In this document: one piece after another, positions 63,106 to 63,194 of the stretch
Numbering within the stretch: the stretch's first letter is position 1
Layout of the letters: the number at the start of each line of letters is the position of its first letter
Source: Escherichia coli
GTDB taxonomy: Bacteria; Pseudomonadota; Gammaproteobacteria; Enterobacterales; Enterobacteriaceae
DNA: 64,000 bases
Assembly: GCF_003334355.1 (NCBI RefSeq)
Contig: NZ_QOWP01000002.1
Direction: 5' to 3' (one strand)
The notes under the pieces: generated by a model
What the model was told of the DNA's origin: nothing
What the model saw: the letters and a program-made list of their open reading frames with translations, nothing else
Database searches by the model: none
Translations under genes and position numbers: made by a program

Positions 63106-63194
63106 GCTGCCTGTCCTGTCGTGTGTGGTGAATTACCGCCTCTTGTCTCCCTCCGGTTACCCGAAGGGAGCGGGCTTTCTTTCACCGATGGCGA

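Follow-up and report, generated by a model that had tools for sequence, protein, structure and literature searches.

The window analysed here is a 64,000-nt stretch of an Escherichia coli genome (RefSeq assembly GCF_003334355.1, contig NZ_QOWP01000002.1), and it carries the histidine transport genes hisJ, hisQ, hisM and hisP in that order on the minus strand (Table 1). The hisJ stop codon ends at 63195 and hisQ begins at 63105, and the limits of the gap between them had been given exactly in a first-pass annotation of this DNA, at 63106-63194. The true end of the operon is the intrinsic terminator CUCCGGUGGC-UAAC-GCUGCCGGAG followed by UAUUUUC, which lies just past the hisP stop codon in the 196-nt hisP-rpnB intergenic region. 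Window coordinates are converted to K-12 coordinates by adding 2,362,811. The spacer was found in one copy each in 5426/5426 complete E. coli genomes, and the 501 bases around the site, also present in 5426/5426, were 100% identical in many E. coli chromosomes. No feature annotation was found for the spacer in the K-12 RefSeq record or in the other E. coli records listed. The sole genome of the 5426 lacking an intact spacer was that of strain TUM14697 (NZ_CP128888.1, fetched locus 1411-3059), in which an IS4-like ISEc13 element has entered the hisJ-hisQ spacer and interrupts the hairpin described below in its 5' arm; the match to the spacer picks up again at spacer base 31. In the same strain yfcH directly follows hisP and rpnB is not annotated.

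Table 1. Features of the hisJQMP operon and of the hisJ-hisQ spacer, in window coordinates
Feature	Position	Strand	Remarks
hisJ CDS	63977-63195	minus	260-aa ORF; annotated as hisJ in E. coli genomes; periplasmic histidine-binding protein; stabilised cistron
hisJ-hisQ intercistronic spacer	63194-63106	minus	89 nt
Composite structure around the inner stem	63186-63127	minus	MFE and centroid folds
Outer 6-bp helix, GGUGAA / UUCACC	63186-63181 / 63132-63127	minus	
3-bp helix, GCC / GGC	63175-63173 / 63140-63138	minus	
Inner hairpin, CUCCCUUCGG-GUAA-CCGGAGGGAG	63170-63147	minus	10 bp including one G·U; GNRA-type loop; 24 nt
Published in vivo 3' end of stabilised hisJ mRNA	63141	minus	…GGGAGACAAGA-3'; K-12 position 2425952
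CA-rich hisQ leader, GUAAUUCACCACACACGACAGGACAGGCA / CACCACACACGACAGGACAGG	63136-63108	minus	contains weak hisQ Shine-Dalgarno; predicted GcvB R1 pairing site
hisQ CDS	63105-62419	minus	permease; cistron next to hisJ, the first of the less stable hisQMP
hisM	62422-61706	minus	
hisP	61698-60925	minus	
hisP-distal intrinsic terminator	60918-60895	minus	terminator scan and hairpin scan

In the mRNA sense the spacer reads UCGCCAUCGGUGAAAGAAAGCCCG-CUCCCUUCGG-GUAA-CCGGAGGGAG-ACAAGAGGCGGUAAUUCACCACACACGACAGGACAGGCAGC, followed directly by the AUG, and the inner stem begins 25 nt past the hisJ stop codon. The RNA folding proposed as a check in the first-pass annotation returned a stable structure: the inner stem on the mRNA strand had a predicted energy of -18.6 kcal/mol (z = -4.23), and 0/200 shuffles were as stable. 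The stem-loop had been described as imperfect and GC-rich. The stem-loop stands, at 63147-63170, and the word imperfect is true of the non-coding strand only, because the plus strand had been quoted; that strand has one C·A mismatch and a predicted energy of -13.1 kcal/mol, whereas the minus strand has a G·U wobble at this point and an uninterrupted stem with all 10 bp paired. The whole 89-nt gap folded at -33.2 kcal/mol (z = -3.34), and the inner stem is nested within the GCC/GGC helix and the GGUGAA/UUCACC helix of the composite structure, while the Shine-Dalgarno and AUG of hisQ fall outside the hairpin. An upstream ORF using the SD-like 3' arm of the stem (GGAGGGAG) was ruled out, as no AUG, GUG or UUG stands at a usable distance.

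Hairpins of this class, defined as at least 10 bp with at least 6 G-C pairs, were counted on both strands of the 64-kb window and gave 16 matches, some of them overlapping, at about 11 distinct places, as compared to 6.5 ± 3.4 in shuffled windows. Because about 11 such places exist per window, a chance hairpin in this gap is unlikely yet possible, and the probability of one falling within an 89-nt gap on the sense strand was roughly estimated at 0.005. No curated Rfam family matched either strand of 60500-64000 up to E = 10. Other hairpins with 10-13-bp stems are located at 51866-51890, 27188-27216, 17855-17885, 34449-34477 and 21129-21162. Of these, 51866-51890 reads as a perfect palindrome on either strand, has a T-run on its plus side and looks like a bidirectional terminator, and the one at 27188-27216, on the minus strand, is followed by UUUUUCU.

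The hisJ hairpin resembles two familiar kinds of element, and its identity with either was rejected. A U-tract is absent after the hairpin, the tail of which is ACAAGAGG / ACAAGAGGCGG, and a G+C-rich hairpin with no U-run within 0-2 nt does not qualify as an intrinsic terminator. A terminator scan of the minus strand of the gap gave no terminator-like site, and the same scan recovered the hisP-distal terminator; a canonical U-run tail was likewise found on none of the orthologous hairpins listed. The REP/BIME core consensus …CTTATCCGGCCTAC was unmatched in any Escherichia gap with up to 3 substitutions allowed, while the same criterion gave 16 matches in Salmonella and Citrobacter gaps. The hairpin is single-copy in the window (at most 3 mismatches) and occupies one place per genome in the 5426 E. 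coli genomes.

The behaviour of this hairpin in vivo has been published. Dar & Sorek 2018 (PMC5927463; PLoS Genet 14:e1007354) worked with E. coli BW25113, for which they combined term-seq and TSS mapping with time courses of decay after rifampicin, and their S6 Table, entitled 'E. coli 3' protective structures', has a hisJ|hisQ entry in which the upstream gene is the stabilised one. The term-seq 3' end of hisJ is given at 2419431 (BW25113), with the preceding 60-mer GGCTAATCGCCATCGGTGAAAGAAAGCCCGCTCCCTTCGGGTAACCGGAGGGAGACAAGA and a fold of -19.9 kcal/mol (PMC5927463). We found that this 60-mer is an exact match to 63200-63141 of the minus strand, which places the RNA 3' end at 63141, 6 nt past the stem, and the published energy was reproduced here with the 45-nt 3'-terminal piece. 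In their S3 Table the hisJ/hisQ half-life ratio is 3.72, given without a replicate SD, and the hisJ/hisQ steady-state mRNA ratio is 5.83 ± 2.81; when the data of Moffitt 2016 were re-analysed, the half-life ratio was merely 1.39 (PMC5927463). In the histidine operon and in other ABC transport operons, the stabilised gene was always that of the substrate-binding subunit (PMC5927463). The first-pass annotation had proposed that the stem-loop protects the upstream hisJ mRNA and produces an excess of binding protein over membrane components, and had suggested comparing the abundance of hisJ and hisQMP transcripts. The published data show hisJ and hisQ transcripts to be unequal; the 3' end at the stem and the longer half-life support the protection, and the mRNA ratio supports the excess. 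The element and its function are therefore already known, published in supplementary tables plus one sentence on the histidine transporter. The available supplements of a second term-seq study, that of Adams et al. 2021, contained no hisJ or hisQ entry, and no report of a stem-mutant experiment on the E. coli hisJ hairpin was found in the literature. The window also holds two more protective structures of Dar & Sorek 2018 as exact matches to the published sequences (PMC5927463), namely menC|menE at 12065-12124 on the minus strand, with a 10-bp hairpin at 12069-12093, and folX|yfcH at 58984-59043 on the plus strand.

The comparative analysis showed that a hairpin at this site is a general property of the operon. 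The hisQ loci of 80 enterobacterial species were fetched and the hisJ-hisQ gap was taken from each; a stable hairpin was present in 80/80 gaps, which ranged from 57 to 289 nt, and the stems fell into at least 10 unrelated sequences. Chance is ruled out by this presence in all 80 orthologous gaps. Over 77 distinct gaps the median z-score of the gap MFE was -2.4, and 62% were below -2. The stem is CUCCCUUCGG in Escherichia, CUCCCUCCUGC in some Citrobacter, CCCCUCCC in Enterobacter, Lelliottia, Kosakonia and Leclercia, CCAUCGCGCGC in Klebsiella and Raoultella, and CCCAUCG(N5) in Kluyvera, with still other sequences in Pseudocitrobacter, Pluralibacter, Atlantibacter and Superficieibacter. Among the 17 sequences of the Klebsiella/Kluyvera type, 95.7% of the cells were paired and 7/11 pairs had compensatory changes, with a covariation of 0.58 vs 0.25 after shuffling (0/500 as high) and only 33-53% pairing in slid registers. 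The 39 sequences of the Escherichia/Citrobacter/Enterobacter type gave 96.9% paired cells, 5/11 pairs with compensatory changes and a covariation of 0.30 vs 0.18 (0/500 as high), with 46-61% pairing in slid registers; inner-stem pairing is understated in this set because MAFFT shifts the 3' arms of Escherichia and Enterobacter by one base. The outer 4-pair helix equivalent to GCC/GGC was 99.3% paired in 39 species, and 2/4 pairs had changed on both sides, although these two switched pairs, which differ between clades, may represent one single evolutionary event. The loop in Escherichia varies while the stem is kept, being GUAA, GCUA in one E. coli and AAGAG in E. albertii, so the GNRA-like loop is not the conserved feature. 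Gaps of the Klebsiella/Kluyvera type have the simple hairpin only, and in many genera a simple hairpin alone lies about 4-50 nt from the hisQ start codon. The E. coli hairpin is more stable on the mRNA strand; a comparison of sense and antisense hairpin energies across the 80 species revealed no consistent asymmetry that would indicate strand-specific selection.

The same position is filled by REP sequences in related genera. The gaps of Salmonella and of many Citrobacter (loci L007-L009, L011-L013, L016-L022 and L024-L026 in our set) are 138-190 nt long and carry inverted REP cores, CTTATC(C/A)GGCCTAC. When the Escherichia, Citrobacter and Salmonella gaps were aligned, they had a common left flank …AUAAAGCCC and a common right flank AAAAGAGGC…CACCACACAC / AAAAGAGGC…CACCACACACGACAGGACAGGCAGC, and between the flanks was either a unique hairpin of 24-27 nt or a REP-carrying cassette of about 75-125 nt. 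The hairpin and the REP cassette are positional equivalents because both sit between the same flanks, and the GCC/GGC outer clamp is conserved around both forms in this aligned set. Strains of C. amalonaticus have 1-REP, 2-REP and no-REP states (gaps of 138, 168 and 190 nt), and the gap of related Citrobacter is 94 nt. The inner stem seems to be interchangeable as a cassette, with Escherichia and Enterobacter carrying a unique hairpin and Salmonella and Citrobacter a REP pair; if true, this locus would illustrate how REPs can naturally take the place of an older stabiliser with the same function. For Salmonella typhimurium, Higgins et al. in 1982 and Stern et al. in 1988 reportedly described a pair of REPs in the hisJ-hisQ spacer, and the latter are said to have deleted the REPs and to have noted translational effects of the spacer. 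The record under the title Citrobacter freundii M-21 has a gap of 289 nt (locus 2212-2500), the ends of which, including the GCGCCCCG… hairpin, are like those of Atlantibacter gaps; after the hairpin comes a segment of about 190 nt with terminal inverted repeats TATACCC…GGGTATA that looks like a small mobile element, and the species label of this record is perhaps doubtful.

Taken together, the hisJ-hisQ hairpin is very probably an intercistronic mRNA stabiliser that acts as a barrier to 3'->5' exonucleases and thereby protects hisJ. In this mechanism, the hisJQMP genes, possibly with argT, would be transcribed as one polycistron, and, as the stem has no U-tract behind it, the RNA polymerase would run past the hairpin. 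Decay of the hisQMP part, which is poorly translated, would begin with an endonucleolytic cut downstream of the hairpin, which might be RNase E-dependent, for example near GGUAAUUCA. PNPase or RNase II would then trim the RNA in the 3'->5' direction until it stalled about 6 nt short of the G+C-rich 10-bp stem, and a translatable hisJ mRNA ending at 63141 would remain and outlive hisQMP several-fold, which would give more binding protein than membrane subunits. The part played by this very stem in E. coli is argued by analogy with malE-malF and with the REP deletions in the Salmonella hisJ-hisQ spacer, and the nucleases and the initiating cleavage are those suggested by the malEFG paradigm and by general knowledge of PNPase and RNase II. 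The 3' strands of the outer helices, UUCACC and GGC, are beyond the mapped 3' end, so the outer-helix 3' strand is dispensable in the final product. Since the steady-state ratio of 5.8 exceeds the half-life ratio, some of the polarity could come from elsewhere, for instance from weak termination or pausing.

The 3' third of the spacer forms a module of its own, the translation-initiation region of hisQ, through which the small RNA GcvB represses hisQ. It contains a CA-rich tract just upstream of the hisQ start codon that is conserved across genera. Miyakoshi et al. 2022 verified hisQ as a GcvB target that is repressed through the R1 seed, using a hisJ-hisQ intraoperonic reporter (PMC9299463). 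A windowed RNAduplex scan with nt 62-91 of GcvB (gcvB taken from K-12) placed the best R1 pairing at -31..-3 of hisQ, with an energy of -23.4 kcal/mol as compared to -19.6 ± 2.9 for shuffles, 18/200 of which were as good, a weakly significant result. We infer that GcvB pairs at 63136-63108, and the exact bases are a prediction because the R1 pairing only modestly beats composition-matched shuffles. Full-length GcvB against the spacer gave in RNAduplex an end-to-end duplex that was no better than shuffles. Near its start, this predicted site overlaps with the UUCACC strand of the outer helix.

Two other functions of the spacer deserve to be weighed. The composite structure could be an endonuclease processing signal, in which a cut by RNase E or RNase III at ACAAGA|GGC, within the internal loop that the composite helix contains, alone sets the 3' end. 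The mapped 3' end does fall past the inner stem but ahead of the GGC strand that belongs to the covarying outer helix, and such a cut would account for the conservation of the outer helix despite its absence from the product. However, the helices are short and interrupted (6 bp, 3 bp and 10 bp), and RNase III acts poorly on such helices. Stalled exonucleases also leave an overhang of 6 nt, and gaps of the Klebsiella/Kluyvera type retain the simple hairpin only, so that we consider processing without a protective role unlikely. Alternatively, the structure could have a mainly translational role, uncoupling hisQ from hisJ or controlling access to the hisQ ribosome-binding site or the GcvB site, with the mRNA protection as a by-product. 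The overlap of the UUCACC strand with the predicted GcvB/CA-rich site would fit this role, as would the translational effects that Stern et al. reportedly saw with the Salmonella spacer in 1988. The post-transcriptional repression of hisQ by GcvB (PMC9299463) is also in its favour. However, the position of the hisQ Shine-Dalgarno and AUG outside the hairpin, the retention of a simple hairpin alone at variable distances from hisQ in many genera, and the fact that the measured difference was in mRNA half-life (PMC5927463) make a mainly translational role improbable as well.

The hairpin could also be a leaky terminator or attenuator that works with the help of Rho or, despite the lack of a U-tract, intrinsically, so that fewer polymerases reach hisQMP and the end at 63141 is a termination product. 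The hairpin is G+C-rich and stable, and a steady-state ratio of 5.83 above a half-life ratio of 3.72 (1.39 in the Moffitt data) leaves room for polarity. REP/BIME elements, which are present at the equivalent Salmonella site, are said to have been linked elsewhere to transcription attenuation (Espeli, 2001). These points are outweighed by the missing U-tract, by the terminator scan, blank on the minus strand of the gap yet able to find the hisP-distal terminator, and by the orthologous hairpins listed, which have no canonical U-run tail. In addition, the protective hairpins as a set lack U-tracts and had no bicyclomycin-sensitive, i.e., Rho-dependent, termination, and operons with intrinsic terminators or known Rho termination had been excluded from the set of Dar & Sorek (PMC5927463); we regard leaky termination as decidedly unlikely. 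The remaining reading, a chance palindrome or a decayed mobile-repeat remnant without function, could appeal to the roughly 6.5 class hairpins per shuffled window on both strands and to the REPs that fill the same slot in related genera, but it is effectively refuted by conservation with compensatory change (80/80 species and 5426/5426 E. coli genomes, with strong covariation), and Escherichia has no REP core match and an in vivo 3' end at the hairpin base.

Protection of hisJ by the hairpin, our preferred reading, might be combined with the GcvB module into a two-part switch, in which the hairpin insulates hisJ from the GcvB-triggered decay of hisQMP. GcvB bound at the CA-rich leader would stop the translation of hisQMP and trigger its decay, and the hairpin, 20-30 nt upstream, would keep this decay from reaching hisJ. 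We offer this switch tentatively, as a possibility on which we lean to the doubtful side; if true, GcvB would control the shared membrane translocator and leave the binding-protein message untouched. As a stabiliser, the hairpin would account for several-fold more HisJ than HisQMP message from one promoter, which is the textbook principle of ABC importers. Our additions are small, useful for annotation and for the design of operon-tuning parts, and not a discovery. The minor extensions beyond the literature are the structural conservation across genera, the interchange of hairpin and REP inside a clamp that is itself conserved, and the proximity of the GcvB site.

The hisJ|hisQ entry of Dar & Sorek 2018 is the same object as the one described here, with identical sequence, predicted fold and proposed function, whereas the outer helices, the cross-genus survey and the overlap with the GcvB site were not described there. 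An intrinsic terminator likewise combines a G+C-rich stem-loop that closes a cistron with an RNA 3' end just downstream, but the hisJ hairpin has no U-tract, and hisQMP rely on read-through. The CA-rich leader of this amino-acid transporter mRNA, which abuts the hisQ Shine-Dalgarno, is like those of the GcvB R1 targets of Miyakoshi et al. 2022, and this likeness concerns the leader downstream of the hairpin and not the hairpin. The REP pair of the Salmonella typhimurium hisJ-hisQ spacer has the orthologous position and the same flanks, with a term-seq 3' end inside the REP and a hisJ/hisQ ratio of 4.77 (S5 Table, PMC5927463); the two Salmonella subspecies examined have a spacer of 181-182 nt with two inverted REP cores, whereas that of E. 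coli is 89 nt and has a 24-nt hairpin and no REP. The closest functional parallel is the malE-malF stabiliser (Newbury et al. 1987), which, as outlined in PMC5927463, also comes immediately behind the gene for the binding protein in an ABC importer operon, halts 3'->5' exonucleases once an endonuclease has cut downstream and leaves binding-protein mRNA in excess. The malE-malF element consists of dispersed REP sequences, whereas the hisJ hairpin of E. coli is a unique, single-copy sequence.
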